Source: an uncultured virus (IMG/VR IMGVR_UViG_3300020458_000003) (Duplodnaviria > Heunggongvirae > Uroviricota > Caudoviricetes). From it: a stretch of DNA of 64,000 nucleotides. Numbering within the stretch: position 1 is the first letter of the stretch; each line of letters opens with the position of its first letter. The notes under the pieces are model-generated. The model had not been told where the DNA came from, did not search any database, and saw only the letters and a program-made list of their open reading frames with translations. The stretch lies in the IMG/VR virus record IMGVR_UViG_3300020458_000003; one strand, given 5' to 3'. Positions 20,701 through 64,000 of this stretch are shown here, one piece after another. Both the position numbers and the translations under genes were made by a program.

Positions 20701-20731
20701 ACAATTATCACTAGGTGAGAGAACGTCAACC
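20701..20731 (-). promoter_or_regulatory. Repeated promoter motif GGTTGACG-N16-TAATTGT (copy 1)
   Basis: Same motif and spacing at 6 sites. Confidence 0.8.
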
Positions 20732-20980
20732 ACATTTTTCGATGATTTTATTAGAACTCATCTAAAGACACTCAATGAATACACCAGTCTGCTACGACAT
20801 TGGCTACAGCCAAGACAGAGCGACGTCTGAGTCGTACCTCTTCGCTTTGGATGATGACAGGAACGAGGACGAACTGTCAGAACTGCCAGAAGGCTTTTGT
20901 CAGTTTTGGCAGTGGAGTCTGGAGGGGGTACTGAGGAAATTCCTGGGTTGATCAGTTTGCTGCGTGAATTTGCAGCGGCA

Positions 20981-22767: not shown

Positions 22768-22798
22768 ACAATTAGCACCGAGCAGCCAGTCGTCAACC
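22768..22798 (-). promoter_or_regulatory. Repeated promoter motif (copy 2)
   Basis: GGTTGACG-N16-TAATTGT. Confidence 0.8.
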
Positions 22799-22829
22799 AC
22801 TTTTTCCAGAGGGGCACATCATGGGATCC

Positions 22830-24872: not shown

Positions 24873-24903
24873 ACAATTAGCACCAAGTGATAAATCGTCA
24901 ACC
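24873..24903 (-). promoter_or_regulatory. Repeated promoter motif (copy 3)
   Basis: GGTTGACG-N16-TAATTGT plus shared leader. Confidence 0.8.
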
Positions 24904-24930
24904 AACTCTTTGAAAAAGAGTCTCATGCTC

Positions 24931-25309: not shown

Positions 25310-25340
25310 ACAATTAGCAACCAGTCAACGATCGTCAACC
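25310..25340 (-). promoter_or_regulatory. Repeated promoter motif (copy 4)
   Basis: GGTTGACG-N16-TAATTGT. Confidence 0.8.
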
Positions 25341-25403
25341 AACCAAATCATTCTTTGATCCAATAGCCGTAAACGCACCGTTTGCCACCCCGGCTACACG
25401 ACT

Positions 25404-26989: not shown

Positions 26990-27020
26990 ACAATTAACAC
27001 CAAGTGATAAATCGTCAACC
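26990..27020 (-). promoter_or_regulatory. Repeated promoter motif (copy 5)
   Basis: GGTTGACG-N16-TAATTGT. Confidence 0.8.
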
Positions 27021-27042
27021 ATATTTCTAGAGGATTTCTAAC

Positions 27043-27381
27043 ATGCGAAAACAGGGGCTCCTATTTGATTCACGAAAAGCGATGGACGCAAAATCCTCCT
27101 CTATGGATGCGGTCGAGAGGAACACACTACTGTCCAGCAAGGAAATTATCCTAGACGCGATTCGTGCTGTGCCTGTCGGCACGGAATTTACGACCGATTC
27201 AGTGTGGATGGTAATCCCCGAGTCGGTCCGCCAGGAAATCGAGCCTCGTGTGCTGGGTCCACTGATGACAATCGCGGCCAAACGCCGACTGATATCCAGG
27301 ACAGACCGCGTGGAGAATTCCACAATGGTGAGCTGCCACGCGCGGCCAAAAAGAATTTGGATCAGAAATAATTCTGGTTGA
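27043..27381 (+). CDS. Small phage protein (winged-helix-like)
   Basis: GAGGA RBS; FTTDSVW...EPRVLGP...CHARPKRIW. Confidence 0.65.
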   Translation: MRKQGLLFDSRKAMDAKSSSMDAVERNTLLSSKEIILDAIRAVPVGTEFTTDSVWMVIPESVRQEIEPRVLGPLMTIAAKRRLISRTDRVENSTMVSCHARPKRIWIRNNSG

Positions 27382-27406
27382 CGGTTCGCGACTCACTGCT
27401 AATTGT
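27376..27406 (+). promoter_or_regulatory. Repeated promoter motif (copy 6, rightward)
   Basis: GGTTGACG-N16-TAATTGT plus shared leader ending AAGGACAGAACAATG. Confidence 0.8.
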
Positions 27407-27740: not shown

Positions 27741-27766
27741 AGATACACGAAAGGGCTTAGTAGACC

Positions 27767-28177
27767 ATGACCATAACAGAACAGATGCTACAGGATGCGA
27801 TCGAGACCGTTCGCCGGATGAATGCCGAGGTGCTGAATCGACTGTCGCGCCGCCGCAGCCTTTGCATGACCCCGAGGGTTGAACCCGATCTTAATGAGGA
27901 CCACAACAGGAGCAAGGGAACAACGATGACATACCGAGTCTACGCAGTACCAGATGGGTCTGATATCAGCTATTGCGGAGAGTTTTTGACACTCGGTGCG
28001 GCTCAGGCTGCAGCCGAGCGCGAACCGGCGGGACTCGACCGGTCCGAGTGGGACACAGCCAGAGCGGCGGGCAGCTGTGGCGGACAGTACTCGCCGGAAT
28101 CGGCCGATGAATCAGAACCGATCAGCTGGCATGGACCGATGGGATTTCACTGTGTGGTTCGCGCGACTCACTGCTGA
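27767..28177 (+). CDS. Hypothetical protein (true start may be internal, at MTYRVY)
   Basis: Colinear ORF. Confidence 0.5.
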   Translation: MTITEQMLQDAIETVRRMNAEVLNRLSRRRSLCMTPRVEPDLNEDHNRSKGTTMTYRVYAVPDGSDISYCGEFLTLGAAQAAAEREPAGLDRSEWDTARAAGSCGGQYSPESADESEPISWHGPMGFHCVVRATHC

Positions 28178-28277
28178 TTGTCTGGTGGTGAGAGAAGACA
28201 ACCAAAACAAAAACATTCGAACCGACTGGATCGAGCCGGACGGTTTCCAACAGCCCACGAGATAAGGAGTCGGAGCG

Positions 28278-28751: not shown

Positions 28752-28881
28752 ATCCACGAGACAAAAATGAAGCATGAGCTACTCCACCAACATCAACGAA
28801 ACACGATGACGGCATTGACGACATTAACGCGAAGTGATAATCTAGCCCCACCACAACGATAACAAAAGGGAGAACGAAGGA

Positions 28882-29277: not shown

Positions 29278-29631
29278 GTGACGACGTTTGAGGAGCTTGC
29301 GTTTACACGGCTCGTTGCAACGAATGTGAAACGGCTGCGAATTGAGAGATCACTGGGCGTAAGAGAGGTTTGCGAAAAATCTACCAGGCTCTCGAAGGGC
29401 AGTCAGCCTCTGATAGCTCGGCCGATAACAGTGCCCCGGTGGTACAGGATGGAGCAAGGGACCCACCCGAGGATGGTGGCATCAGCCGTGGACGCTTTTG
29501 CCCGAGTCCTTGGAGTCAGGAGAGACGACCTCGTGACAATGAAAAAACCCAACCGAAGAAAAAAGAAAATCACACGAAAGAAGGGAATTGATCGTGCTCG
29601 TACTCACAAGAAAACCCGGCCAGTCAATTAA
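29278..29631 (+). CDS. XRE/Cro-like HTH regulator
   Basis: NVKRLRIERSL...RMEQG...ARVLGV. Confidence 0.75.
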   Translation: MTTFEELAFTRLVATNVKRLRIERSLGVREVCEKSTRLSKGSQPLIARPITVPRWYRMEQGTHPRMVASAVDAFARVLGVRRDDLVTMKKPNRRKKKITRKKGIDRARTHKKTRPVN

Positions 29632-48094: not shown

Positions 48095-49135
48095 TTAGTC
48101 AGTTGCTGCTGTGAACAAAAATCCGCTAATGAACGCAGTTCCAACTCCAGAGAAGTCGTCCACAACTCGGCCCAAGTGGCGGCGGTTGTCGCGGTCGTGC
48201 TTCGATTCGACAGTCATCTCCTCTTTAAGGAAAATTGTCACCGTCGAGAATGACGGCGCGCCTTCGATCCCCTCCAGTCCACCGACCCGAGAACACATGA
48301 ACGGGGTGGTGTCAGGCAGGACATAGCTAGTGGCCTTCGTGGCGCCCTTTTTCGAGGTCACCTTGACGGCGTCTTCAATTGCCACTTTGTACCCGTAGAG
48401 ATTCTCAGGGAGACCAAACCGGTTGGCCCGGCTAAGGGTCTTCGTGAGCTCCTTCTCAGCTGACGGCGAGCCCTTAACATGGTCAACGATTTCCTGGCTG
48501 AGCGCGATTTTTTTCGCACATCCAGGACTCATGACAATCATCAAGTCTTCGGGCTTAACCGCACCCAGAGTGGACTTGAGGATAATCTCGGCACCATGGT
48601 CAAAGGACCTCTTAATGTCCTTGCGTGCCGTGGTGCTGACGTCCCACTTTCCAGTCACGCCAGAAATCGAACTCACAGCAGACGTGTGATCTGAGGCATA
48701 GCTTCCGGATGTCGTGGCTGTTGTCACGGCTACTTGAGTTCGCCATGTCATGCATCGCTGAGCTGCATATCTGGCATGATGCGCCAGAACATCCCAAGAA
48801 GCCTGCTCGGCGGCCAGTTCTCCCATACGGAATGGGAATGCATACCGTTTCGTGACATACGAGGACCAAGTGAAGGACTCCAGATTTCCATATCCGGTTG
48901 GAGCCTCACCCTCGTCCGGCCAGAAAAAATCACCGCCATTGGTATCCAGGATGCGGCCTGCCTGTTCGACTGTCATATCGACATAGCGACCTTCGTTCTT
49001 CTCGACCGGAACGTACTGAGCCCATTCCGGCAGCGCGAACGTGTCAGGATTTCGGCTGAAATCAACCACGAGGCCGTTGGAAGCCGCATGATCTGGAATG
49101 AACGTTGTGTATTGACCCGGAGTCGACGTAGGCAT
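48095..49135 (-). CDS. Major capsid protein
   Basis: 346 aa; GGAG RBS; follows scaffold and decoration genes; VKPEDLMIVMSPG...IVDHVK. Confidence 0.8.
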   Translation of the reverse strand: MPTSTPGQYTTFIPDHAASNGLVVDFSRNPDTFALPEWAQYVPVEKNEGRYVDMTVEQAGRILDTNGGDFFWPDEGEAPTGYGNLESFTWSSYVTKRYAFPFRMGELAAEQASWDVLAHHARYAAQRCMTWRTQVAVTTATTSGSYASDHTSAVSSISGVTGKWDVSTTARKDIKRSFDHGAEIILKSTLGAVKPEDLMIVMSPGCAKKIALSQEIVDHVKGSPSAEKELTKTLSRANRFGLPENLYGYKVAIEDAVKVTSKKGATKATSYVLPDTTPFMCSRVGGLEGIEGAPSFSTVTIFLKEEMTVESKHDRDNRRHLGRVVDDFSGVGTAFISGFLFTAATD

Positions 49136-49712: not shown

Positions 49713-51665
49713 TTAGGCTTTACCGTTACCGTTACCGTTGCCGTTGATATTGAAAAGAGTCTCTTCTTTAACAGACCCGCTGTTCTCAATCAGATTATCC
49801 AGCACCTTCGCATAGGTGACATTGCGCCCGGAGTTACGGTATCGCATGACCAGCTTCCCGGCCTCATCGGCGTGCTTTTCCTCTGCGACCTTCCGATTGT
49901 TTTGGCTCTTGCTGGGCTTTCGGAGACCTCTTGAAATCACTCCCGCCGGTACAGCGAAATCGCCGGAAATCTTTGTATATTTGGTGGGGATGGTCTCAGT
50001 CGTGTGCCGGTCGAACTGGTCCTCGGTGTAATCCCGGGTAAGATCCATTTCGTCATCTGGTTCAAGGCAATACCCTTCGCTCTCCAGACGCACAAAGACC
50101 GACTTCCGATTGGCGTCCCTTTCCGAGCTCTGGAGGGAATCAATCCGCTCCTCCTGTGACTCCTTCTCAACCTGCAGTCGAGAATATCGAGCCTTGAGGT
50201 TCAAATGGTCCCGATTCAACTTCGAGTATTTCTTCTTGAGACTCCCCTGTTCAGCAACAAGTTTTTTGTACTTTTGAACGGTGGGCTTCCCTTTCTTCGA
50301 GCATTTCGTAGATTTTCCGACGCTCATTTCGTCCTCGTTCATGGATCCTGAGGGCGTCGAATCGCCCGATTTTTCGGTTATGTCGTCGCCACCAATTGGC
50401 GATTTCCCATACCGTTGTGTGTACTTTTGCTTTGCGTCGTCGTCGTCGCACAGATACTTGAAGTACTTGCCGAGAATTTCTCGGTCTTCGACATCCAGAC
50501 CTTCCATGTATTTGTCCGCACGGGCTGGCGCCATTCCGTATTTCATGTACTGCCTCCCCAGTCCCCTGGCGTACATCTGATCCTCTTCGTCGAGGTCCAG
50601 CTCATCTCCTCCGATAGGTTCCGGGGGGGGGCCACCAATATCTTCTCCGAGTTCCTCGCCGCCGAGATCCAGTTCGCCTTCCATGTCCGGATCCTCCATC
50701 TCCAGTCCTGGATCACCGCCCATGTCTAGCTCATCCTCGTCGGGAAGCTCGTCCGTGAGCTCCATGCCCCCAAAAGCCTCAGGCCCAGGGGCCCCCATAC
50801 CAAGACCTTCCTCGGGCACTCCCAACTCACCGCCGCCCAACTCACCGCCGCCCAGATCCTCGGCAAGTCCTCCTTCAGGGATGAGATCCACCGGCTCCGT
50901 GTCGTCTATTGCAACCGTCGCCTGCGCCACTTCTTCTTGGATAATGGGCTTCATTGCCTCGGCAATTTGTTGGATTTCTGCTTGCGAAAGCGGCATGGTT
51001 TCACCTTTTTCGTGGCGTTGACGTTTGGTTTCGCCTGGAATGTACGTATTTGATCCACCAGGAGTGCTGGAGATCTCTTGGTACTTCAAACGCTGTCCGG
51101 GGGTCTTTTTGGAGTACCGAAGCGGACCGGGTGTGAAATAAAAGTGCGGATTGCCACCGACAGCCTTAGGGCGAGAGTAAATCATCCCCAGGTCTCGCTT
51201 GGGTGTTTCAGACCCCAGGATGGCGATGGGGTCGAAATAACGGTCCTCCGGTCGCTCTTCGGGCCATATTTCAACCGAACGACGAGGATTCCGAAGAAAT
51301 ACCTTTTCGTATTCCGGAAAGACCCAGAACTTTGTGAAAATGCACGGTCTTGGGCGCTCTTCCCCAAAGGAAGAGACATAGAACGGACCAGCAAGTCCGA
51401 TAACCGGAGGATCGTCGTTGGCGTGCTCCTTATCCTCCGCGTCTCGCGTATGTGCAAGGACCAGAGGACACCAATCTCCGCTGTCGCGGATGCGACGATT
51501 GCAATTGTCGGAGATGTGCTTTAGGAGCCTGTCGTCGTAGACAACACCGTCCTCACCTTCATGCTCATCAAACACAGCAACATGCTCGAACACTATGAAA
51601 TCACCGTCATCTGTCGGCGTTCCTCGTGTGCGAGTCGGCTGGTATTGATCAGTTGCGATGGGCAT
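49713..51665 (-). CDS. Prohead protease/scaffold fusion (Mu I-like, tentative)
   Basis: N-domain PLVLAH...PRRSVEIW...IAILGSETP; acidic linker; C-terminal coiled coil; upstream of capsid genes. Confidence 0.7.
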   Translation of the reverse strand: MPIATDQYQPTRTRGTPTDDGDFIVFEHVAVFDEHEGEDGVVYDDRLLKHISDNCNRRIRDSGDWCPLVLAHTRDAEDKEHANDDPPVIGLAGPFYVSSFGEERPRPCIFTKFWVFPEYEKVFLRNPRRSVEIWPEERPEDRYFDPIAILGSETPKRDLGMIYSRPKAVGGNPHFYFTPGPLRYSKKTPGQRLKYQEISSTPGGSNTYIPGETKRQRHEKGETMPLSQAEIQQIAEAMKPIIQEEVAQATVAIDDTEPVDLIPEGGLAEDLGGGELGGGELGVPEEGLGMGAPGPEAFGGMELTDELPDEDELDMGGDPGLEMEDPDMEGELDLGGEELGEDIGGPPPEPIGGDELDLDEEDQMYARGLGRQYMKYGMAPARADKYMEGLDVEDREILGKYFKYLCDDDDAKQKYTQRYGKSPIGGDDITEKSGDSTPSGSMNEDEMSVGKSTKCSKKGKPTVQKYKKLVAEQGSLKKKYSKLNRDHLNLKARYSRLQVEKESQEERIDSLQSSERDANRKSVFVRLESEGYCLEPDDEMDLTRDYTEDQFDRHTTETIPTKYTKISGDFAVPAGVISRGLRKPSKSQNNRKVAEEKHADEAGKLVMRYRNSGRNVTYAKVLDNLIENSGSVKEETLFNINGNGNGNGKA

Positions 51666-51672
51666 TGCGCAT

Positions 51673-51727
51673 AAAAAAAACCCAGGGACCCCCTATCGGG
51701 ATCACCGGGCTTGCTTAACAAGTACCG
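51673..51727 (-). promoter_or_regulatory. CGGTACT-hairpin-terminator element (copy 1)
   Basis: CGGTACTTGTTAAGCAAGCCCGG...CTGGGTTTTTTTT, 7 nt before the ATG. Confidence 0.65.
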
Positions 51728-51772
51728 TCTGTGTGATATATGCCTAAGTCTATCCAGTTTACTGCAAAACAG

Positions 51773-52024
51773 TCAAGACATAGATGGTGGGGGGGTTACG
51801 AAGTGTGACGGGTGCCACCTTTGGGAAAGCGCAATCAGCTCGGTCATTTGAGTTGCTAGTTGGCTAATAGCATCAGCACTCACGCGGGCTATTTCAGAAT
51901 CTGTAACCCTCAGGCACAGCATTCTTCGGTCTTCGTCTGGGAGATCCATCACTTCCGCACGGCACTTACTGCACATTGCCGGGACCCGGGCGACAATATT
52001 CGCCAAGCACAGCGAGCACTGCAT
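51773..52024 (-). CDS. Small Zn-finger protein
   Basis: MQCSLC...MCSKC. Confidence 0.6.
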   Translation of the reverse strand: MQCSLCLANIVARVPAMCSKCRAEVMDLPDEDRRMLCLRVTDSEIARVSADAISQLATQMTELIALSQRWHPSHFVTPPPSMS

Positions 52025-52027
52025 TTC

Positions 52028-52465
52028 TTATACACCTTTGGAGAGATGGTCCCAGCAGTATTTTGTTTGCTGCCGGGACATGTTCTTAAAGGTCAGTACC
52101 GCCGGAGGCATTCCATTGTGCGATGCAAACACAATGGCTTTCATCCCTACCGTGGTCTTAATTAGCCCGTGGCCGTCAAATACCAGTTGGGGGGGGATCG
52201 ACCGTAATAGCCATCGCTCGTAGTTTCTTATAAAGGTCGAAATGTCCTGGTCTCCCTTAAGTTGACACAGGACATTATCGTGTACCTCAACCCCCACATC
52301 CACCAAATGAATCACCCCACCTCTGATGTGAATCTCAGCGAGACAATGAAATTCACGTTCGTTCTGAACGCGTTTTGGGACCTCGTGACGCATAAACGAG
52401 GCGACGTCATTAACGACAGTCTGCGTCATCGCAGTCGCGTTTGGTCGCCTTTTCCTGCCCTCCAT
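52028..52465 (-). CDS. Hypothetical protein
   Basis: Colinear 145-aa ORF. Confidence 0.55.
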   Translation of the reverse strand: MEGRKRRPNATAMTQTVVNDVASFMRHEVPKRVQNEREFHCLAEIHIRGGVIHLVDVGVEVHDNVLCQLKGDQDISTFIRNYERWLLRSIPPQLVFDGHGLIKTTVGMKAIVFASHNGMPPAVLTFKNMSRQQTKYCWDHLSKGV

Positions 52466-52474
52466 GCTGCCCTT

Positions 52475-55400
52475 TTAACCGCTAACTTGATAGTGCGTCC
52501 TGCAGTAGCGCGTGACTGCCTCTCTATTGCGCGAATAACTCTCTGCTTGCGGCTTGTCCACAGAGACCATCTTTACGTTGACGCCAGTTTTGCGGAACGA
52601 TTCAGGCAGGTTAAAACTTCCTTGCGGCAGCTCTTCTGAAGACCCTCCGAGCCCACTGACCCACTCATCGAATTGTTCTCGATTCCCTCCTCCTCCTCCT
52701 GACATGATGGCAACGAGACGACCGCCGGGCTTCAGTTGCTTATATGCATGCTGAACGTGCGATATATCAGCGCCTTTCTCAAACGGCGGGTTCATCACAA
52801 TCCTGTCGTACTGTCCCTGGTGCGCTAAGAAGTCGCCATATTCGACATCATGACCCTTGGCAGACAATACCGGACTCAGCTCACGATTGAACTCCATGCC
52901 CTTTAGGTTGGCGTCTGGATGTTCGTCGCGAACAGCATCCAGGATATCGCCTTTGCCTGACGACGGCTCAAGGACATCATGCCCGGAGCGGATATCAGCC
53001 TCTGATAGCATCTGGTCGATCAAGCCTGGTGGCGTCGGGAAGAACCCTGGTATCTTGCGACCAATCAGGTCTCTTTCGGCTTTCGCTATCGGGTCCTCGG
53101 CTCCTTTTTTACCTCGGATCGGTATGTACTCTCGCAGCGCAGCGCGGAGTTCGTGCTCGTTCGTGATGCCCGCTGCATGAAGCCTCTGCATCGGCTCGGC
53201 AGCGCTTTTTAGGCTTTCGATGGTCCATTTGTGCTCCCTCGGATTCACCTTTCGGAGTTTAGCCGTGACGCTTTTTAACGCTTCCCATTGGTACTGACTC
53301 TTTAATCGTACGATACCGCGGTCACCCGCCTTCTCTGACAACTTTTTGAGGTAGTCACGTTCGTATTTAATCCCCTGCCTGCCTCGGAGCGCTTCGGACA
53401 TGCGATTGATATCACTGGACTGCAGTACGGGGTAGGGATAAGACGCATGATCCGCGTGTCCTGCCGTGATAGGCTCCTGCTGGGCATTTTCGTACGTCTG
53501 GTTGGGTAATTTTCTTCTGTCGCCTCCGTATTCTGTTTCGACGAGGTGGTCTAGCTTGTTCCACCTGGATCGATTCAAGACCGACTCTAACGCTTCGATG
53601 TGCGTACCGGCCGAAATACCGTCGAGGTACTTTGCCTGTCCGCTGTCGATAGCACTGGCTATGTTTCGCATGGTCGCAGCTCGCGCAATGTTCGACCGAG
53701 CCCTACCCTGAATTCCTGCCGCCATTTCAGCCTGTCGGGACGTGTTTGTCCTCCGGTCGGCAGAGAGGTCGGCATTGGCCGACTCGTGAAGCCTGTCCGC
53801 CATCGCATTCATCCGTTCGGCCGCGCTGGCTGACTTTAGCCGCTTATCCTCTTCCAGTCTTGCTGAAACGTCTGCATTCTCACCTTCAGTGAGTCCGAGA
53901 AACTTCTCACGGCTTTCTTCATTCTCGAAATGGAATCCGCCAGGAGTCCCCTTGTACGGCTTGTAATACCAGCCGCCAAGACGCTTAGCTTTGCTGCTCA
54001 GGTCACGAAATGTCTCACTGTCAAAGCGATCCTGGGGACTCGCCGTATAGACGTCGTAGCCTCTCTTGCTGTGGTAGTTGGTTGACAACTCAAACTCCGT
54101 GTTGCCTACCTCCACAGCCTGAACAGTCGCCTTCTCGTCCTCCTTTGCCTTTCGTGACTCACGAGACTTGTCGGCCGCCAACTGGTCGTACTGCTGTCGC
54201 TGGTCCGGTCTAAGATTCAGATATCCACCCTTTGCCTTCTCGGCCGTTTTGTACTCGTCAACCGTGGTGGGATTATTCAGCGAGCGCTCTTGGTGGGCTT
54301 TGTGTTCTTCGATTTGCTGCTTTCTATCCGCAATGCGTTCCGCGCGATCTGCCGCATGCTGTTTGATGTGTTCATCTGTCGTGTTTGCAACTGCCTCTGA
54401 CAGGGCTTCTTCGTGAGTTTCCCCCCTCGTGGGATCATAGCGAACTGATTCCCCGGTCACATGCAACTGGTCACGGATGCGGCCATAGATAGCATTCACC
54501 AGAGCTTCCTTGTTTCCACCCTGATACCTCGCGCGCGCCATCGGCCCTAAGCCGCTCAAAAGCTCCTTTTTGGTCTTGGTGCCAAGCTCGGCCTTTATTC
54601 CAGCACCGTTGTCCATGACCTTTGCATGGGCCGCTTTGAGGTCCTCAGCCGATATCGTCCCAGAATTAAGACGATCCATCACGTCATCGATATTTTGTAA
54701 GCTAATGCCGGATCCAGCTATTTTCTCCTGTTCTTGAGCTTTGAATACTTTCGGGTCGATCCCCAATAGCTTGTTCTCTGTCGTCCCGTGAGACTTCAGC
54801 GCCGAAGCGTACCGGCCGGTGAATCGCTTGTAATTTTTATTCCCAAAATGTTCGTTTTCACCAGCCACATCTCTTCGTAAATTATTGATGGCATGTACGA
54901 CGGCTTGATTCTTGTTGTCAGCCGTCCCGTGAATGTATCCCGACCCGTCGCGTTTCAAAATTCTCCAGTAGTGGCCGTGCTTCTCGACTCGACCCAACGC
55001 ATCCTCAATCTCATCTAAGGTCGGCATTCCCTGGGAGTTGATTTCGATCTTTGACGAGTCCCGTTCGGTCTCTTCGATCCCTTGGTGTGCTCTCCACTCC
55101 TCGACTGACTTGCGGATTTTGTCGCGACTAATGCCACCTTGAGAACTCATAAAGATGGATTCGGTGATGGTGCCCAGCGCTGCCGTCTTGGCTTCCCGGA
55201 CAGACTTCTTACCTGCCTCGGTTAGCATGGAGTCGAGATAGCTGGCATTGGCCGAGAGTTCTGGGGGTGCCGCCTCAGCTGGTGAGGATTCCGCAGTCGC
55301 CTCTGCCTTTTTAGAGACGATTTGCCACTTGCCAGGAGAATGCTCGCGGATAGCGTATTCCTGCCCTTCAATTCCCTTCATGCCGTCGGCCATTTTGGCT

Positions 55401-58400
55401 GCAACTGATTCACTGGCCAGGCCAGCATGAGCGCGATCCCAATCACCGTCTACCCATTCATCATTTGAAATCCGTGGGGTGTCATCGCCTTGACGAGCGA
55501 TTGCATCGTCGATCGATGATTCCTGGTCACCTTGAGAAACGGCAATCGGTTCATCTCTCTGCCGGTCCATAGCTCGCTGCCGGTCCATAGCTCGCTGCCG
55601 CGCGGGGGATGGTTGGGGCTTTGCCGCTTCTAGAAGTCGAGGCCGTTCTTCAGCTACCTCGGCGCGGAGTCCCATTTCCTTGATTGGATCCAGTCCGTGG
55701 CGCCGCATGGTGTCGCTGATATTCTCATTGTTGTCGATGGACTCTTGAGCTAGGTCGGTTGCTGCAGGTTGCTCTTTTCCTCTTGATGCTTGGGCACTAG
55801 CATTCTTTAATTCATCTTCTAGTAGACGTTTGCCTGAGGAAAGGTACTCAATATCTCGATTGAGAGCTCCCGCGCTGCCGCCGATATTTCTACCAGCCTT
55901 GACTCTCGCTTGGATTTTCTCGTCCTGTTTTTCGATGTCTTTCTCTATCGCTTCAGGACTTCGGTTAAAGCCTTCATCAATTAACGATCGAACGGCGAGA
56001 GCGATGCCATCAAAACCATCAGGAGCCAAGGAGCCGATTGTATGTGCTAAATCTGACGAACCCTGTCCTCGTTCGAGCTTTTTGAGGTTCGTCCTATTAA
56101 GCTTAAGGCCCTTCGATTCCAGGTAATCCTTGACGGCCTGCTCTGCTTCCGGCATGAATTCACTGGCATGGCGTTTTTCCTGCGGTTCTTCGGCCACTTC
56201 TTCAGTGGCAGCCTCTTCGACAGGATCCTCATCACCCCATTCCTTGGCGCCGTCCCCTGGCTCTGGGTTTATGTTCCCGCCCTGGCTCTCGACGATTGAC
56301 GGCCCGTCAAAACCTTCCATTTCGGCCGATTTGTTAAACTTCTCTAACTGTTCTCGCGCACTATCTACGCTGTCGCGGATCTTCTCCCAGGTTTCCCACT
56401 CGTAGCGGCCGTCCCCACCGAACTTCTTGTCTGCATCGCGGCCTTTTTGGAGTGACACCTCTGCGTCCTTGAGACCGTCTACGGCCTGGGTGACCATCTC
56501 CTGGACGAAGGCAGGCATGTCCTGAAATGTCTTTGTGGCTCCCTCTTCTGGTTCCGGTTCGGACGGTTCCTCGCCTTCGTTCTTGTCTTCACCAACCGGG
56601 TCACCGGGCTGCCTGGACTGTGTCGGGTAGTCCTCGATCGAGTTCTTTCCCATGTCATCGTTGGTGGCCGGTTCAAGATCCGACATGTTCACATAGTGCC
56701 GATTGCCCTTGATATCGATCAAACCGACACGGTCGGATCCCATTCCGCTCCCGCCACGCATCACACCGACAAGACCTGTCGGATCCTTAACCAGACTCCC
56801 ATACGACACTTCTCCCATCCGTGCGGATTGAGGAGACTCTGGTTCCTCCGCCGATTCTGGTTCATCCTCTTTCGGAGTGTAGTCAGGAGACCAAAACGGT
56901 TTCTTTGGTGCAAACTTAGACTCGTCGATATTTCCCGCATGCTGCTCGGTTAAAAAGTGATCAACAAGACGGTTGTAAGCTGGTTCGCCGTATCCATGGA
57001 TGTCAGAAGGGTCGCGATCTTTGCGGACAATGCCGCGACTTTTTCGGGCGTTGATGCCCCTTAAAACTGCCGACCGTTCAGAATCACTTAGACCCTCAAA
57101 CCACCTCGGGGCGTCTACTATCGCTTTGACCCGTTCGTCTCCCTTGACTTGGCGCGGGTTCCATTCTTCTTCCGGTTCCTCCGCCGCCTTCTCCTTGAAA
57201 CTACTCAGCAGCTTCAACGCCTTTTTCGGCTCCCATTTAACCATGGAATCAATTGCATCAAGAGCTTCCTTGGGGTCCCCACCGTGCTTTGCTATCGTGG
57301 CATCGGCTACTGCTTGACCCACCTCATCGAATAGCTCTTTAGCCTGGGCCTTGGCTTCCCTGTTTTCACTGAAGGCGACCTTTCGCTTATCTTTGGCGAT
57401 TTTCGCTTGCTCTCGCTTGTCGCGATCGATCTGGGAATCGAGAGACCCACTCCCGCGTTTATCGACCGGGACATTAGAAATGGCCGTATCCCCGCCAGTG
57501 TCGGTCACTGGATCGCCTTCCCGTTCTCGCTTGGCTTCCAATCGCACTTTTAATTCGTTATGGAGGTGGTCAAGCAGCTTCTCACCGTGGCCACGTCCTG
57601 CAGCATTGAAGTAGCGGTTATACGAAGAAGCGATATTGCGGTCGTAGTTCTTTCCTTGCAGTGAGTACGGCTTGGCTTCGTCTAGGACTTCCGCGTGCCG
57701 GTCAATCACACCACCAGTCGGCTCTTCGTTTGGCTCGGCGACTTCCTCTGCAGGTTTCGATTCTTCAGGCACAGGTTCTGGCGAACCCTCTTCCTCTGGT
57801 GCCGGTTCCTCTTGGTCCCGCCGCTCCCACCGAGAGTTGGCGTTAAGGACATAGGTCACGCCGCCCTCTGTCTTGGTTTCACCTTGTTGGTGTTGCGGCG
57901 TTTCAAACAATGGACCAGGAGAACCGAAGAGGTCCATCTGGCCTGGACTGGACTTTCTGCGCGCATACGATTCCGGGTAGTTGGCTTTCATGTACCGCTG
58001 GACGGCATCCTCGGCATACGTCATTCGGTCGTCAGACGGGTCGAATGTTCCTTGATTGTCTGATGACTTGATTTGGTTTGGTTCGAATGCGACCCATACG
58101 CGATGTTCATGACCGCCTCCCATGATGTTTCCGCCTGTGTGCGTTAGTCCGTCGTGTCCCATCTGGCGGAATAAGTCATGCCTTTGGTCCTTGCTTAAAG
58201 GTCTCATCCCACGAGCAACCTCTACTCCAACGTAATTGCTGATCTCGTCCATCAAGCCCCAAACGGAATGCTCCTGACCGCCCTGCATATTGGGGTGCTT
58301 CTCCACCATTCGTCGGTCATTTGCATACCTGCGAAGCACTCTAGCTGCCTTTCCACGCTCACCATGAAAATCACTGGATTCGATGGTATATGCCAGAAAC

Positions 58401-61400
58401 TCTGCTTGATCGGATGTAGCGATTTGGTCTAAGTCGAGAGGATTGCGGATGTTCAAGTAAACATTCTTGACTTCCGACTTAGGCAGCAATCCCTTGAGGT
58501 AGTCATGTAGCGGCTGTAGATCAGCCTCGTCTCGCATCGGTAATTCATCGTGAATAGTGGTCTGATTCAGCGTCCACTTACCCGGAGTTGCCGGTGAATC
58601 ATGTGCTATCCGCACGTTTTTATAAGGCTGCTGACCTGTCTTGTAGATGATATTGACTTCCGCACCACCAGTTCGCCCGCTGCCAAATGCCGGTTTCTCT
58701 TGCAATTTGTAGTCGTCCGGCAATAGTGAGATAATCTTGCTTTCAATAGCCGCCCAGTCTTTGGATTCAGGGTGATAATCGACTGTTGGAAGATTTCCGG
58801 CGTATTCACCCGCGATACTTTCATCTTCTGTGAAGTAAAAACCTGGGCCATACAGCAGAGAATTTGCGTCGCCTATTTTGGACTTATCGAATCGATCCCA
58901 GCCGCCAGAAGGCGTCCCATGGTAAGCGACAATAGGCTTTCCTTCCTTGTCAGCCACCTTACTCATATGGTAATTCTCTTGCGGCTCACCCGTCTCCAGA
59001 TCGACCACTTGAGAGGCATTCTCGGAGTCATTCTCCCAATCACCGAACCAAGACTTGAACGCTTTCGCGCGAACGCCGTTCTCTTGCCAATCTTGGGCGG
59101 CCTGCTCTGGGCTGTACTGCTCTTCGTCCGGGGATTTATCGGAATCGGAGGCTTCCCATCTGTCAATCATCTGTTTGGCGAACCACAGCTGACCGACAGC
59201 GTCCTGAGCCTGCCAGCCGCCAGGAGTGTCCTCGAAAATAGTCCATTCCTTAGATAGCGATCCATCCTCTCTTTCCAAGTGGCCTATTTGGTAACCCTTG
59301 TAGATGTACTCGCTTGGGCCAGTCTTTACAGGTTTCGATTCTTCAGGCACAGGTTCTGGCGAACCCTCTTCCTCTGGTGCCGGTTCCTCTTGGTCCCGCC
59401 GCTCCCACCGAGAGTTGGCGTTAAGGACATAGGTCACGCCGCCCTCTGTCTTGGTTTCACCTTGTTGGTGTTGCGGCGTTTCAAACAATGGACCAGGAGA
59501 ACCGAAGAGGTCCATCTGGCCTGGACTGGACTTTCTGCGCGCATACGATTCCGGGTAGTTGGCTTTCATGTACCGCTGGACGGCATCCTCGGCATACGTC
59601 ATTCGGTCGTCAGACGGGTCGAATGTTCCTTGATTGTCTGATGACTTGATTTGGTTTGGTTCGAATGCGACCCATACGCGATGGTGATGGCCGCCACCCA
59701 TACGGTCACCGCCGATATGAGTAATACCGTCGTGACCCATGCCTCGCAGTACTTCGTACATGGCATACTTACCGATCTGCGAAGACACAATGTTATACAG
59801 TGTCTCAACCTTCCCACTCGGGGTATCGATCTCTTGTAACGTCCGCCAAGAGCTCGACAACTTCTTGCGAAGAGTTTTCGTAACACTCTCTTTAAGTACC
59901 GGACTCATGTCCTTGTACCACCTGCCCCCCACACCGCTAGTTTCCATAGACTTAACGATTGCATCCGCATCCGCAGTCTTTAATACATTGATCCAATCCG
60001 AAACATTCTGATCGGAATCCAAGTCCAATGGTTTCCGGATATTCAAATAGACTTCTTTCGTTTCCTCTGTGCGTTGTCTTGTCACTAGCTGAAGAAGGTC
60101 AACACCATATCGTGACAACGCATTGTAATTGGCCGAATTCATGCCTTCCAAGCTGGCAGCATCTATTTGACCTTCATTTACCTTATTAAGGGTCCATGTA
60201 AGATTATCTACTGCCTCTTTAGCCATTTTTGGTGCAAGCTTACCCCACTTTCCATCGCCAGCCCCCTGTGCTTCAAGCTTTTTCTTTTCTATGGCAACTC
60301 CTATGAGATGTTTGAGCTTTTCTGTCGCTTCATCAACGTTATATTTCAACTTTGCTCGATAGCTACCGCCAGGAGACGATTCCTTCTGTTCATACGAACT
60401 AGCCACAGACTCATCTTCAGTGAAATAAAATCCCGGACCAAATAATAGGTGTTCTGGATTCCCCATCTTCGACTTATCGAACGCTTCCCAGCCGCCAACA
60501 GCTGTCCCGTGATACACCCGTACCGGCTTACCATCTTCACCATGCACCTGGCTCATATGGTAGTTTTCGGTCGGCTCCCCAGTCTCCGGACCGACCACTT
60601 GAGAGGCATTCTCGGAGTCATTCTCCCAGTCACCAAACCACGACTTGAAGGACTTCGCGCGGACGCCGTTCGCCTGCCAGTCCTGGGATGCCTGCTCGGG
60701 GCTGTACTGCTCTTCCGGGGCCTCTTTTTCTGATTCTGGAGAGGTGGTCTCGATTTCCGGTGTGGTCGCAGTCGCAGGTTTCGCGGCTTGTGGTTCTTCC
60801 CTGTTGGCCAGTTCCCACCGATGGTTTTGATTGAGCCTGTACGTGGTCCCGTTCTCTGTCTTCGTGTCTCCAACTTGGTGGTCTGGGAAGTCAATCATCA
60901 ACTGCTGCGCGTACTTCAGTAGCTGGTCGCTGTTCTTCGAATACTGTCCAGATCCCATATTGGCCTGGAGCAACTTCATAGCGCCCTTTGCAATCTTGGC
61001 CGCACCCTGCTTGCTCATGCCCAGCTTCTCACCGATCTCGGAAAAACTCATACCCTCTTCGAACTTCATGGACAGAACGGCGCGCTGGCGTTCCGGTAGC
61101 TCCTCCATCAACTCTTGGAGTTGTTCAACTAGCTCGCCTTCGCCCGCGAGTTCTCCGCCAGATCGCATCTTTTCATCGACCGGATTCATCGGAGCATCAG
61201 CCGCTTCTTGTGGGATCCCCGCAAAGTCTTCATCTCCTGGAACGGCTACCACACCACCGCGGCGAAGCTTCCCGGACGCGCGCTGTATACTCTGCAAAAC
61301 CCAGTAGGCAGCGTATTTATGGAAAGCCTTTCCTTTGCTTGGGTCGAATTTGTCAGCTGCATGTAGCAGAGCAATCGAGCCCTCCTGGAGGAGGTCGTCG

Positions 61401-64000
61401 CGGTCGTTCGACTTGTTGGAGAATCGCTTTGCAATATTGCGAATAAGACCGCCGTTCTTTTCTAACAGAGCCCCGGCGGCGTCTTTGTCACCAGACTGTA
61501 TTCTGGACACTAGATCTTCGTTAGATCCTGGCTTGAACGAAGGCGCAGGGGATCCTACTGACTCCGGCATGACGTCAGGACTAGCAGATTCCGGAACCTC
61601 TACAGGAGGAGCAGAAGGTGTAGCTACAGAAGCAGGTGCAGCTTCCTTGGGCTTGGCCGGAGTGGGTTTTTTCGCTGCGGGCGGAACAGCTTCTTTCGCG
61701 GGCGCTGCCCCTGATGAACCTGGATCGCTAGTAAACTGACCACCTTCGCCACGAGGGTGCTTGCCCTCTTCCCAGTCTGCCGACCCAGGAACAGTAGGTT
61801 CATCAAATAGAGACAGCTGTCGAGCATATCGCACAACTCGAAGAGCGCCCGCCCGTCCATGACCCCGCTGTCGCAGGAAGTTGTATAGACGACGATAGCT
61901 CCGCCGCCTCTCTCGCATGCAATGGAAGATCGGTGCCGAGTTACCACCTTCGATTATTTCGCAATTGCCAAACGCTTTCTTCAGAATCCCTTGGACCATC
62001 TGGGTGGCTTCGTCGGAGCTCATTCCGTCATACGCGCCCTTGCGAGGGCTATTCGGAAGATTGGCAATGCAGTGTCCATTAACCTCAGTCGACTCCAGCA
62101 TCTCCTGAATTGTCTTCTGGAGCTCTTGGAGGCTGTCCTGGACGTTTAGAACGTTCGAGGCATAAACGACGCAGTATTTTTCATTGAGTGCGTTAGAGTC
62201 GTGTACGGGGCTTTTGTTCTCGCCGTATTCGTAGGGCGTGACGTCCACACCGTGACCAGAGAGAATTCCAGCATGAACGGCGTGTTTGCCAGCACCGAAA
62301 TCTAGGACGGTGGCGTCCTGTCCCACCTGCTGGGCTACCTTCTCAGCAATCTTAGGGACCTTAGCATTGGGGCCAACGGCACCACCGGACCGAGAAGTGG
62401 AGTTTGCAACAGCCACTGCCGTGTCCTCGTGCGAAGCGGCCCGATACCGTCGCCATCTCGCTAGAGACTGCCGTGACCATTTTTTATAGCGAATTTTCCA
62501 TCCTCTCCGCATCGATCGCTGCCCAGCCTGGGACCAAGAATCGATAAGGGCTCTCGCCTCGGAGCCTGGCTGTTCCTCATGGCGTGAAAGCTGTTCCAAC
62601 GCTTCCGCCATGACTTCATCATGCCACGGCTGGATGTTCTTCATCATGGATTTCTGGAGAGTATTCCACAGTGCTTCAGAGGAATCACCCTGTCCCGCAG
62701 ACTCTCCCACATCCCAATCCAAAACATCCGGATGATATCTCTCTGCAGTCTCTGCCATCTCGTCAAACTGCCCTCCGTAAGGGCTGTGTTTCTGAAATGC
62801 ATCGTGATCACGACCGCGGTACTGTCTCAACGAAGCTAGGAACCTCTGCCGGGGCGATGCTTGCCGGGTCGTCTTTCCTGTGACCGGATCCTTTTCGACT
62901 ACCGTTTCGTTACCGAAGTACTGCCCAATGACGTCATTGATACCTGCTGCACGCCCAGCGGCCTGTTCCTGCTTTTGACTGTAAATATCTTCAGCTACAG
63001 ACTTTAGTTGCTGCTGCAATTCCGCATACTCTTCGTCGGAAGTCTCTGCGGACTGTGGCCCCAGGGCTTCCAGGATCGCCTTGCCTATGCGGCTCTTGGG
63101 ATTCACTCTGCGAACTTTGGGGGGCGTTTTTGGGTTTTCTGTGACATTTGAAAACTCATCAGAAGAGCCCGTTTCCTCCGTACCAGTTACTGAAGGAGGT
63201 GTCTGCTGTGGAGACTCAGCCGGCGAAACATCCTCTCTTGGAATCGAATACCGTACGTCCCAGTCATCGCTTTTGAACTTCGGCGGGATCATCACGACGT
63301 TTCCGCCGTCGGAAGAGAATCCAATCGCACCGTGTCCTAGGGTTTTCGATAGGTCGTGCAGTTGTCCGTATTCGGACGCTTCTGTACTGTCTTTGAGGTG
63401 GTCGTACAGCTCCCTCGCGTACTCATGCCCTAGCCGAGTGGTCTGGACGTGCCCCCTTCGCTTTGTGTCCCGCAACCGGTGTAGAGAACCTAGTAGACCC
63501 TGGATGGATGTGGGGGCTTGCTCAATATGTCCTCCAATGATGGCGTACTTTTCGTCGTTTGACTGTGGGGCTGGCTCATCGAGTTCGACATCGGACCCCA
63601 CGTCACTACCCCGGAGTTCTTCTCCGGGCTCTGCACCGGCAGCATCCTCCTGTCGCTTGGCCTCCTCTATTTCTCTCTGCCTATCCATAGCTCGCTGTCG
63701 CGAAGGAGACGGCTGCGGTTTTGGAACTTCAGAGTCCGGCGGCCTTACTGGCTCTGAGCCGACTCCACTAGAGTCGCCCTTGGCGTCGGGTAAATCTCGT
63801 GTCCTGCTGGCACTTTCATGCTCCGCGAGAATGGCCACCATTTGATGGCGAGCTTCTCGACTTGGCCTGAAGGACTCGTAGAGACTAAACGGATTATCTG
63901 ATCCGGACGCTGCTTGAGCGGCCTGGTCGACTTTGTCATGCATCTCTTCTGGCAAATCTGACTTGAGAATGTCGGCCAACTGGCCAACTACTTCTTGGGG
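52475..64000 (-). CDS. Giant polyvalent protein (>3840 aa, 5' end beyond the window): SAM methyltransferase, sigma-70 r2/r4, two ADP-ribosyltransferase-like domains, N6-adenine DNA methyltransferase
   Basis: Frame is open to base 64000. VLDFGAG...YASNVLNV (~61915-62400); DLLQEG..AL..AADKFDPSKG..F..YA.YW and LPERQRAVL...EIGEKLG (~60960-61525); YHGT..GPGFYFT..YLNIR.P..GHDG..WVAFEPNQIKS twice (~59600-60690, ~58020-59100); FFPTP..VLEPSSGKG..IVMNPPF (~52550-53060). Confidence 0.9.
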   Translation of the reverse strand, partial: PQEVVGQLADILKSDLPEEMHDKVDQAAQAASGSDNPFSLYESFRPSREARHQMVAILAEHESASRTRDLPDAKGDSSGVGSEPVRPPDSEVPKPQPSPSRQRAMDRQREIEEAKRQEDAAGAEPGEELRGSDVGSDVELDEPAPQSNDEKYAIIGGHIEQAPTSIQGLLGSLHRLRDTKRRGHVQTTRLGHEYARELYDHLKDSTEASEYGQLHDLSKTLGHGAIGFSSDGGNVVMIPPKFKSDDWDVRYSIPREDVSPAESPQQTPPSVTGTEETGSSDEFSNVTENPKTPPKVRRVNPKSRIGKAILEALGPQSAETSDEEYAELQQQLKSVAEDIYSQKQEQAAGRAAGINDVIGQYFGNETVVEKDPVTGKTTRQASPRQRFLASLRQYRGRDHDAFQKHSPYGGQFDEMAETAERYHPDVLDWDVGESAGQGDSSEALWNTLQKSMMKNIQPWHDEVMAEALEQLSRHEEQPGSEARALIDSWSQAGQRSMRRGWKIRYKKWSRQSLARWRRYRAASHEDTAVAVANSTSRSGGAVGPNAKVPKIAEKVAQQVGQDATVLDFGAGKHAVHAGILSGHGVDVTPYEYGENKSPVHDSNALNEKYCVVYASNVLNVQDSLQELQKTIQEMLESTEVNGHCIANLPNSPRKGAYDGMSSDEATQMVQGILKKAFGNCEIIEGGNSAPIFHCMRERRRSYRRLYNFLRQRGHGRAGALRVVRYARQLSLFDEPTVPGSADWEEGKHPRGEGGQFTSDPGSSGAAPAKEAVPPAAKKPTPAKPKEAAPASVATPSAPPVEVPESASPDVMPESVGSPAPSFKPGSNEDLVSRIQSGDKDAAGALLEKNGGLIRNIAKRFSNKSNDRDDLLQEGSIALLHAADKFDPSKGKAFHKYAAYWVLQSIQRASGKLRRGGVVAVPGDEDFAGIPQEAADAPMNPVDEKMRSGGELAGEGELVEQLQELMEELPERQRAVLSMKFEEGMSFSEIGEKLGMSKQGAAKIAKGAMKLLQANMGSGQYSKNSDQLLKYAQQLMIDFPDHQVGDTKTENGTTYRLNQNHRWELANREEPQAAKPATATTPEIETTSPESEKEAPEEQYSPEQASQDWQANGVRAKSFKSWFGDWENDSENASQVVGPETGEPTENYHMSQVHGEDGKPVRVYHGTAVGGWEAFDKSKMGNPEHLLFGPGFYFTEDESVASSYEQKESSPGGSYRAKLKYNVDEATEKLKHLIGVAIEKKKLEAQGAGDGKWGKLAPKMAKEAVDNLTWTLNKVNEGQIDAASLEGMNSANYNALSRYGVDLLQLVTRQRTEETKEVYLNIRKPLDLDSDQNVSDWINVLKTADADAIVKSMETSGVGGRWYKDMSPVLKESVTKTLRKKLSSSWRTLQEIDTPSGKVETLYNIVSSQIGKYAMYEVLRGMGHDGITHIGGDRMGGGHHHRVWVAFEPNQIKSSDNQGTFDPSDDRMTYAEDAVQRYMKANYPESYARRKSSPGQMDLFGSPGPLFETPQHQQGETKTEGGVTYVLNANSRWERRDQEEPAPEEEGSPEPVPEESKPVKTGPSEYIYKGYQIGHLEREDGSLSKEWTIFEDTPGGWQAQDAVGQLWFAKQMIDRWEASDSDKSPDEEQYSPEQAAQDWQENGVRAKAFKSWFGDWENDSENASQVVDLETGEPQENYHMSKVADKEGKPIVAYHGTPSGGWDRFDKSKIGDANSLLYGPGFYFTEDESIAGEYAGNLPTVDYHPESKDWAAIESKIISLLPDDYKLQEKPAFGSGRTGGAEVNIIYKTGQQPYKNVRIAHDSPATPGKWTLNQTTIHDELPMRDEADLQPLHDYLKGLLPKSEVKNVYLNIRNPLDLDQIATSDQAEFLAYTIESSDFHGERGKAARVLRRYANDRRMVEKHPNMQGGQEHSVWGLMDEISNYVGVEVARGMRPLSKDQRHDLFRQMGHDGLTHTGGNIMGGGHEHRVWVAFEPNQIKSSDNQGTFDPSDDRMTYAEDAVQRYMKANYPESYARRKSSPGQMDLFGSPGPLFETPQHQQGETKTEGGVTYVLNANSRWERRDQEEPAPEEEGSPEPVPEESKPAEEVAEPNEEPTGGVIDRHAEVLDEAKPYSLQGKNYDRNIASSYNRYFNAAGRGHGEKLLDHLHNELKVRLEAKREREGDPVTDTGGDTAISNVPVDKRGSGSLDSQIDRDKREQAKIAKDKRKVAFSENREAKAQAKELFDEVGQAVADATIAKHGGDPKEALDAIDSMVKWEPKKALKLLSSFKEKAAEEPEEEWNPRQVKGDERVKAIVDAPRWFEGLSDSERSAVLRGINARKSRGIVRKDRDPSDIHGYGEPAYNRLVDHFLTEQHAGNIDESKFAPKKPFWSPDYTPKEDEPESAEEPESPQSARMGEVSYGSLVKDPTGLVGVMRGGSGMGSDRVGLIDIKGNRHYVNMSDLEPATNDDMGKNSIEDYPTQSRQPGDPVGEDKNEGEEPSEPEPEEGATKTFQDMPAFVQEMVTQAVDGLKDAEVSLQKGRDADKKFGGDGRYEWETWEKIRDSVDSAREQLEKFNKSAEMEGFDGPSIVESQGGNINPEPGDGAKEWGDEDPVEEAATEEVAEEPQEKRHASEFMPEAEQAVKDYLESKGLKLNRTNLKKLERGQGSSDLAHTIGSLAPDGFDGIALAVRSLIDEGFNRSPEAIEKDIEKQDEKIQARVKAGRNIGGSAGALNRDIEYLSSGKRLLEDELKNASAQASRGKEQPAATDLAQESIDNNENISDTMRRHGLDPIKEMGLRAEVAEERPRLLEAAKPQPSPARQRAMDRQRAMDRQRDEPIAVSQGDQESSIDDAIARQGDDTPRISNDEWVDGDWDRAHAGLASESVAAKMADGMKGIEGQEYAIREHSPGKWQIVSKKAEATAESSPAEAAPPELSANASYLDSMLTEAGKKSVREAKTAALGTITESIFMSSQGGISRDKIRKSVEEWRAHQGIEETERDSSKIEINSQGMPTLDEIEDALGRVEKHGHYWRILKRDGSGYIHGTADNKNQAVVHAINNLRRDVAGENEHFGNKNYKRFTGRYASALKSHGTTENKLLGIDPKVFKAQEQEKIAGSGISLQNIDDVMDRLNSGTISAEDLKAAHAKVMDNGAGIKAELGTKTKKELLSGLGPMARARYQGGNKEALVNAIYGRIRDQLHVTGESVRYDPTRGETHEEALSEAVANTTDEHIKQHAADRAERIADRKQQIEEHKAHQERSLNNPTTVDEYKTAEKAKGGYLNLRPDQRQQYDQLAADKSRESRKAKEDEKATVQAVEVGNTEFELSTNYHSKRGYDVYTASPQDRFDSETFRDLSSKAKRLGGWYYKPYKGTPGGFHFENEESREKFLGLTEGENADVSARLEEDKRLKSASAAERMNAMADRLHESANADLSADRRTNTSRQAEMAAGIQGRARSNIARAATMRNIASAIDSGQAKYLDGISAGTHIEALESVLNRSRWNKLDHLVETEYGGDRRKLPNQTYENAQQEPITAGHADHASYPYPVLQSSDINRMSEALRGRQGIKYERDYLKKLSEKAGDRGIVRLKSQYQWEALKSVTAKLRKVNPREHKWTIESLKSAAEPMQRLHAAGITNEHELRAALREYIPIRGKKGAEDPIAKAERDLIGRKIPGFFPTPPGLIDQMLSEADIRSGHDVLEPSSGKGDILDAVRDEHPDANLKGMEFNRELSPVLSAKGHDVEYGDFLAHQGQYDRIVMNPPFEKGADISHVQHAYKQLKPGGRLVAIMSGGGGGNREQFDEWVSGLGGSSEELPQGSFNLPESFRKTGVNVKMVSVDKPQAESYSRNREAVTRYCRTHYQVSG
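57751..58105. repeat. 355-bp intragenic direct repeat (second copy 59329-59683)
   Basis: No differences seen by eye; offset 1578 bp, which is in frame. Confidence 0.93.

Follow-up and report, generated by a model that had tools for sequence, protein, structure and literature searches.

A sigma-70 domain inside a giant head-type polyprotein of an uncultured phage, and the repeated early promoters that it may read

Can a phage carry a sigma factor in its virion and so begin early transcription before any of its own proteins has been made? The question is raised by a 64,000-nucleotide stretch of an uncultured marine virus of the Caudoviricetes (IMG/VR IMGVR_UViG_3300020458_000003; "the window" means this whole stretch), in which a sigma-70-family domain (60959..61525, minus strand) lies within a giant open frame and a promoter-like element is repeated. 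A preliminary description, made from the letters alone, had proposed that the two were matched. The analysis reported here concludes that the embedded sigma is a real, conserved cassette of a head-type polyprotein with a testable release mechanism. That it is a functional alternative sigma, packaged in the head as a cassette, delivered and reading the repeated element, is the single most likely reading, held tentatively and a little short of an even chance.

The stretch 60959-61525 encodes a true sigma-70 domain. Its 189 amino acids (residues 826-1014 of the window's 3,841-aa open frame) comprise a helix resembling region 1.2, region 2 (PF04542; 61262..61468), an acidic linker in the place of region 3 (61142..61261) and region 4 (PF04545/PF08281; 60968..61126), all on the minus strand. 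In Pfam, Sigma70_r2 matched at aa 845-913 of the frame with 50.3 bits (cut-off 24) and Sigma70_r4/r4_2 at aa 959-1011 with 35.9 and 40 bits (cut-offs 24.1 and 25.7); Sigma70_r3 was not among the 9 families detected at E<=0.1 in the giant frame. The superfamily model TIGR02937 gave 96.6 bits against a cut-off of 42.9. In the AlphaFold2 model regions 2 and 4 are helical, residues 92-128 have a pLDDT below 50, and the linker is predicted to be disordered. When this model was compared with the PDB, 143 matches were obtained at E<=0.001, and those listed were all sigma factors or sigma complexes. The regions 2 and 4 that had first been noticed, with a short linker and no region 3, inside the giant frame, were thus confirmed by Pfam, TIGR02937 and AlphaFold2.

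Beside the superfamily model TIGR02937, which was passed, every listed sigma subfamily model remained below its cut-off. The best-scoring subfamily models on region 2 were SigBFG, RpoD and RpoS; Sigma70_ECF reached 19.6 bits, below its cut-off of 21.1, region 2 being nearer to the models of groups 1-3. The two-domain layout of the extracytoplasmic function (ECF, group 4) sigmas, region 2-linker-region 4, is present (Pfam, AlphaFold2). The domain therefore resembles group 3/4 bacterial sigmas in its SigB/SigF/RpoS-like region 2 and ECF-like layout, short of the subfamily cut-offs. The core-docking stretch of region 2.2, DDLLQEGSIALLHAADKFD, is retained in the alignment to RpoS, and from such sequence features it is likely that the phage domain binds host core RNA polymerase. 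Compared with its orthologue in record G027 (61% identity, 189 codons), nonsynonymous divergence (dN) was 0.31 and synonymous divergence (dS) 2.25, the latter near saturation, a pattern resembling that of the adjoining domains; judged by these codons, the sigma domain is under purifying selection.

The carrier is a giant polyvalent protein, of which the window holds the C-terminal 3,841 aa (52475..64000, minus strand; open frame, Pfam). Two virus records, L001 and L002, match the window at 99.9%; the start of the gene lies in L001, whose 1,651 aa bring the full protein to about 5,492 aa, and L002 carries a 4,966-aa variant without one ART repeat. Above cut-off, the giant protein contains ART-PolyVal twice, two methyltransferase domains and the sigma; GNAT and MutS_I-like domains upstream of the window are both below cut-off. 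A methyltransferase domain (62048..62329, minus strand; Pfam) belongs to the cassette preceding the sigma, which is followed by two ART-PolyVal cassettes (57751..60538, minus strand, limits approximate; Pfam, repeat search). Several unrelated effector domains are thus united in one large protein, as is characteristic of polyvalent proteins. The gene order of the head block is terminase (named by eye), portal fusion, giant gene, protease and capsid; upstream, the overlapping record G002 has a terminase-like gene, a portal fusion and a further large head-type protein. The major capsid protein (48095..49135, minus strand; phrog_1005, E 3.8e-5) had no match among cultured phages. Direct repeats of 412 bp (57751-58162 and 59329-59740) bracket a 1,578-bp ART cassette that L001 has and L002 lacks, either by natural cassette loss or by assembly collapse. 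Contigs of four DNA runs over 50000-64000 revealed no joints nor, in the sigma stretch, any variant, and are unable to exclude the existence of a shorter ART variant.

Embedded sigmas are not restricted to this protein. An exhaustive phmmer search (best 150 matches) found the compact sigma in six other large proteins, with InPase, ART-PolyVal, Portal_Mu plus Zeta toxin-like plus Fic-like, or Phage_Mu_F as partner domains. Among records found by capsid or portal, a sigma was carried by 4 of 23 in a first set (2 embedded, 2 solo), and 6 of 46 matched in a second (4 embedded, 1 solo, 1 with the helix-turn-helix only); 80 metagenome loci contributed L391 and L436/L439. With duplicates merged (G034 = G029, L381 = G032, L439 = L436) and P0010 excluded, the total was 13 distinct embedded sigmas in related phage head proteins, new in the present analysis. 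Region 2 and region 4 are both kept in all 13, and the frames are intact in every case. The sigma is fused to the portal in P0028, G029 (where it lies within the portal protein) and L391, and to MuF in P0039. The excluded P0010, labelled Elusimicrobiota, is a 2,469-aa protein with three region 2-region 4 sigma-like repeats between hydrophobic segments. Word-based homologue searches returned six unrelated sigmas among proteins of 332-2000 aa and only the giant protein itself among those of 2731-8691 aa, and the ESM Atlas gave generic sigma clusters only. Cultured phages yielded 97 sigma matches, the 25 listed being solo sigma genes or unannotated.

In a FastTree phylogeny of region 2 plus region 4 (70 of 73 rows), the window, G027, G032/P0012, P0147, P0028, P0019 and P0025 form a seven-member clade (support 94, unstarred) that spans different carrier proteins. 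The sigmas of G010, G029, G014, L391, L436 and P0039 fall outside it, so several captures are possible. On the capsid tree the sigma carriers are scattered. Could the domain then be a captured, inactive passenger of a mosaic protein? It is missing from most relatives, including G005, the nearest well-covered one, and the DNA-reading residues differ widely over the family. The alignment of the sigmas was too variable for a pattern scan. A passenger would not be expected to show dN far under dS, to recur as a clade in different carriers or to keep its frame intact throughout, and we consider this explanation very improbable.

How could the sigma be freed from such a protein? The cassettes of the giant protein start alike, with a Tyr, A-R/K-Q, a QLxLF-like word and often an HPR..G.F word. 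By these boundary motifs the sigma would form a 305-aa cassette (60911..61825, minus strand) between presumed cuts at VVRY|ARQ and LLKY|AQQ; it opens with QLSLF and an HPR leader, followed by a Pro/Ala linker. QLSLF/QMDLF-like words recur past the boundary Tyr in the giant protein and its relatives; they resemble the beta-clamp-binding motif. A PAPS-reductase-like gene (25404-26714) also has a QLTLF end.

A Tyr-centred profile was built from the Tyr sites before HPR words, using only genomes without an embedded sigma; in training, a Tyr stood within 30 aa of the HPR word in 25 of 33 cases (background 54%). On the 4,966-aa variant the profile found four sites scoring >=8, two of which, at Y2376 and Y2681, flank the sigma. 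For 11 of the 13 embedded sigmas a site ranking in the top 14% of windows lies within 40 aa past their end; G010 and P0039 have no such site just after region 4. In P0028 and P0039, Met|Ala and Phe|Ser were seen by eye at the cassette borders instead of Tyr, which suggests lineage-specific protease preferences. Two results speak against cleavage at the motif: profile sites scoring >=8 occupied 6 of 166 Tyr versus 3 of 193, and the bare [RK]Y dipeptide was equally enriched in head proteins (2.0x) and in other proteins (2.1x), for which reason this enrichment was dropped as evidence.

A candidate for the cutting enzyme is a putative prohead protease (first ~165 aa) fused to scaffold (49713..51665, minus strand). 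Its gene has no Pfam or PHROG match; the best fold matches of the protease-domain model were herpesvirus assemblins and T4 gp21 (E 0.014 or weaker, none at E<=0.001), and H72 and S130 are invariant in 20 of 20 homologues. The motif PLRY|S directly follows the protease fold, and [RKQE]Y[ASGE] occurs there in 21 of 24 homologues (background 8%), which are kin and not independent. Since the (R/K)Y|A motif both borders the cassettes and follows the protease fold, the sigma is probably excised as a 305-aa piece; rather more speaks for than against a giant protein cleaved at the Tyr motif to free the sigma cassette. The protease itself would cut itself off the scaffold, and the polyproteins, after Tyr, in parallel with gp245 of phage SPN3US, which cleaves head proteins and itself after Glu (PMC10052503). 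In SPN3US and T4 a short motif is likewise cut repeatedly in head or ejection proteins and in the protease; there, the cut is after Glu and mostly removes propeptides, whereas the candidate site described here follows a Tyr, and cutting there would divide a polyprotein into separate effectors.

What could the sigma read? The preliminary description had listed six promoters with TTGACG and, 16 bp downstream, TAATTGT preceded by TG, and these six are real. The pattern TTGACG-N10..16-TGNTAAT matched seven times in the window against 0.03 expected, and seven matches were reached in 0 of 100 shuffles; six have TAATTGT at 16 bp, and the seventh (28815, plus strand) is of the canonical 17-bp TAATCT type. 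The array promoters, TGG-TTGACG-N16-TAATTGT, were located by motif scan on the minus strand at 20701..20732 (copy 20729), 22768..22799 (22796), 24873..24904 (24901), 25310..25341 (25338) and 26990..27021 (27018), and on the plus strand at 27375..27406 (27378), the divergent partner of copy 27018. With two further copies in G002 the total is eight. TGG-TTGAC, the G at -14 and TAATT.T are invariant over these, so the motif as first given was incomplete at its upstream side (TGG precedes the -35 in 8/8), and its TG element is not absolute (T in 6/8, G in 8/8). The base at -7 is G or C in all eight copies and the spacing is fixed at 16 bp, while the 13-bp spacers have a mean identity of 0.42, with one identical pair (copies 24901 and 27018).

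The copies have a common downstream leader and sit before small early-type genes, not structural genes. Repeat comparison revealed a decayed promoter-leader cassette, without -35 and with an altered -10 (28162..28213, plus strand). Canonical host-type promoter-like sites were also found by motif scan: TTGACG-N17-TAATCT (28815..28843, plus strand) and, before the protease and capsid genes, TTGACT-N18-TAGACT (51747..51776, minus strand). As the genome has these sites in addition to the array, the phage carries two promoter classes. In window 20981-21472, duplicated blocks contain three CTAATTAG palindromes (~21091, 21120 and 21397), which have CTAATT in common with the array -10 box and are a possible operator or origin. 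A promoter scan of viral contigs hit at least 105 stretches, by chance matches or the same element (2 stretches with the longer motif), the search of a genome collection gave one 3-kb contig only, and no RNA datasets containing window 20500-29500 were listed.

The position of the arrays bears on where the sigma would act. If the cassette were freed in the infected cell and not delivered by the virion, it could be a late or switch sigma, or shut off early or host transcription. The protease gene and, as judged by eye, the giant gene have canonical promoter-like sites in front of them, which would allow host sigma to express the giant gene first, and in SPN3US the propeptide regions of most processed head proteins are undetectable in particles (PMC10052503). 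For a sigma acting in the cell, however, a solo gene would be simpler, as in G072, G071 and G025; the portal or MuF fusions of relatives tie the sigma to the head, and the arrays stand before early-type genes. We therefore regard release in the cell as unlikely. Packaging of the sigma in the head is, by the same context, very likely, and the virion delivery first proposed finds good contextual support in a polyvalent protein of the head block and in the portal and MuF fusions of homologous sigma domains.

Whether the delivered sigma would read the array was examined by comparison with related records. In 21 sigma-less records, non-coding TTGAC-N16..18-TA sites had T at -7 in 32 of 57 cases, as against 25 of 117 with control pentamers; in the array, -7T occurs in 0 of 8 copies (p=0.005 against the 32/57 host-type sites). 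Sigma-less here means without a sigma above the TIGR02937 cut-off, 8 of the 21 having sub-cut-off matches to a portion of it. Completeness reaches >=80% in only 9 of the 21 records, and G012, G035, G053 and G064 were examined short of their ends. An unbiased gapped-word scan recovered TTGAC..TAATT in the window and, in seven copies ahead of small genes of G010, TTGACA-N14-CCAATA; ten other records yielded no comparable motif. G029 has CGGCCC-N12/13-GTTAT (8 copies) and TGTTAA-N16-GTTAT (7 copies). Atypical exact arrays were thus present in 3 of 4 embedded-sigma genomes (window, G010 and G029, each with a distinct -10 side) and in 0 of 21 sigma-less ones (p=0.002, uncorrected for kinship); with any array counted, the figures were 3/4 and 1/21 (p=0.007). 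The denominator is the 4 embedded-sigma genomes with a non-structural region, G014, G027, L391 and L436 (mainly structural genes) and G033 (a close relative of G027) being excluded.

Some observations made beside these comparisons may be recorded. G072 has a nine-copy ECF-like array, TGATCC-N16-CGTTA, and encodes a solo ECF sigma; the gene (5359-5832) and its nine dispersed sites are a clean candidate for a phage sigma-promoter pair. In G029 (L281-L283), GTTAT is common to two promoter-like classes, one with TTAAC and TATnnT, the other with CGGCCC. In G010, an array promoter at 9793 (minus strand; L167) falls within the 3' end of the gene that bears the sigma, before an internal ATG, so that the gene tail may also be a separate early gene. 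The top motifs of G005, G007, G017, G071 and G025 were rejected as tandem or terminal repeats, not promoters; short tandem repeats stand at both record ends in G005, G007 and G071.

Several results weigh against a sigma that reads the array. The prediction fixed beforehand was passed by G029 and failed by G032 (1/2 vs 0/12, p=0.14); G032, which alone in the window's sigma clade is a complete genome, had no array in three scans, relaxed ones included. G043, without sigma, has a host-type array of 7 copies with variable spacing, and G072 was taken out of the sigma-less set after its array had been seen. The G029 arrays were significant in two scans and not in a third (p 0.4), and one of their two classes has a canonical TATnnT -10. 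The solo-sigma records G071, G025 and G026 have no array. The residues that would read the array also raise doubt. In sigma70 of E. coli, position -31 is read by R584 and -33 by E585 (less strictly in E585Q), while the readers of the TG element are H455/E458 of region 3.0 (PMC2613000). When these residue numbers were transferred to the phage domain via the RpoS alignment, no equivalents of H455/E458 in region 3 or of R584/E585 in region 4.2 were found, as a primary (group 1) sigma would have; region 4.2 reads SKQGAAK against TRERVRQ in RpoS, and the position of the TG reader is the disordered linker. Yet TTGAC is invariant in 8/8 copies despite the unkept readers. Region 2.3-2.4, moreover, diverges between close orthologues (YAAYWVLQSI in the window, FAAYQIQAYV in G027, whose record is missing the early region).

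Because the domain is without the TTGAC- and TG-reading residues of sigma70, the host's primary sigma accounts better for the TG and for a TTGAC without variation, both being known elements of that sigma. On that explanation the array would consist of duplicated promoter-leader cassettes, like the early-promoter stem-loop elements (PeSLs) of T4-type phages (PMC2839356), and the injected sigma would be a decoy or competitor for core polymerase (or for an anti-sigma), or read other degenerate targets. The copies are indeed partly duplicates, since two share identical spacers, and the common leader and the decayed copy are what recombination among cassettes should leave behind. With a 17-bp spacing the -10 side would read AATTGT, with -11A and -7T kept; primary-sigma promoters without -7T are common in Alphaproteobacteria (PMC8407463); and both the array of G043 and the sigma of G032 occur without the other. 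The PeSLs, too, are promoter cassettes that recur in front of small variable genes and show traces of recombination, but they are sigma70-like and carry terminator stem-loops, whereas the window array has an atypical -10 and no excess of terminators around it (13 found, 13.0 in shuffles). Host-type sites of the group mostly keep TAnnnT with variable spacing, in contrast to the array, where -7 and the spacing stay constant while the spacers diverge; the CCAATA array of G010 and the CGGCCC class of G029 are poor primary-sigma fits, and a decoy could dispense with one of regions 2 and 4, yet all 13 embedded sigmas retain the two. A host-read array, with the sigma as a decoy or competitor or as a reader of other targets, is a serious alternative, not far behind the favoured reading and with clearly less than an even chance.

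The earlier match of sigma and array has comparative support in the association of arrays with embedded sigmas and in the absent -7T, and meets real counter-evidence in G032 and in the lost TTGAC and TG readers. That the sigma reads this phage's array has, in our estimate, nearly an even chance. Promoters readable by both sigmas would, as a conjecture, reconcile much of the mixed evidence.

The reading that we favour can be set out as follows. The giant protein would be synthesized late and enter the prohead, where the prohead protease would cut it after Tyr at (R/K)Y|A-type sites, releasing a sigma piece of ~305 aa together with ART, GNAT and methyltransferase pieces. These pieces would leave the head with the DNA. 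The injected sigma would join host core RNA polymerase and, ahead of all phage protein synthesis, help to fire the TGG-TTGAC-N16-TAATTGT promoters of small early-type genes, and host primary sigma would serve the canonical promoters that the genome also has. The remainder of the model does not depend on cleavage in the head.

The window is phage DNA, as its frames (78 of 217 scanned) include SSB, DnaB, RecT, YqaJ and a transposase, with capsid and head genes by PHROG. The transposase, of the IS1595 family (18386-19420, minus strand), came from the Pfam-type frame scan. Eight marine metagenome runs contain at least half of the window's sampled words, and three of these were marked as possible sources. 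The host is probably a planctomycete: among 120 listed SSB matches, the sole two organism names were Thermoguttaceae and Planctomycetia. Against this stand identical proteins in a record labelled Acidobacteria, a label that may come from binning. No planctomycete promoter consensus was found in the literature. In L117, a terminase-like gene (15864-17828, minus strand) has an apparent mini-intein by eye (Cys start, HHN|S end).

Polyvalent proteins are likewise giant, multi-domain proteins of the head block with ART-PolyVal, GNAT, methyltransferase and InPase domains and portal/MuF fusions, and it has been proposed that they jump-start transcription after being packaged, processed and injected (Iyer et al. 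2017, PMC5512222). The word 'sigma' does not occur in the main text of that paper, where the transcription tools are an N4-like RNA polymerase and modifying enzymes, and processing is mainly by in-built metallopeptidases; here, the tool would be a sigma, and the repeated Tyr motif, which the giant protein has in common with a putative prohead protease encoded by another gene, points to cutting in trans. Like the proposed sigma, the N4 virion RNA polymerase and T4 Alt (PMC5512222) are head-packaged, injected proteins securing early transcription, but N4 injects a whole polymerase and Alt modifies that of the host, whereas the phage sigma would be a specificity subunit only. The sigmas of group 2 jumbo phages are also of the sigma-70 family and redirect host core; they are solo genes made after infection (PMC7824862), as are the middle and late sigmas of SPO1, unlike the sigma embedded here in a virion-type protein. 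In the accessible literature, with subscription journals little covered, no description of a packaged, injected or virion-protein-fused sigma was found.

An injected sigma with an early promoter class of its own would give phages a third way of starting transcription, the others being injection of a polymerase and dependence on the sigma of the host. T4 gp55 is a stand-alone phage protein of the sigma-70 family that redirects host core. To our knowledge, phages with a sigma of their own make it only once infection has begun, and the aids to transcription that phages are known to inject are either whole polymerases or modifying enzymes. Early transcription would here become independent of the state of host sigma and of new protein synthesis. 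As the Tyr boundary motif predicts exact cut sites, the long-proposed processing of polyvalent proteins becomes directly testable. It is possible, though doubtful as a generalization, that phages probably of planctomycetes pack polyproteins, which the prohead protease divides at the Tyr motif into single effectors, and that in several lineages the injected sigma reads private early promoters, each with its own -10 (TAATTGT here, CCAATA in G010, GTTAT in G029). The window, G010, G029 and, with its solo sigma, G072 would then be natural sigma-promoter pairs and may provide orthogonal sigma-promoter sets.

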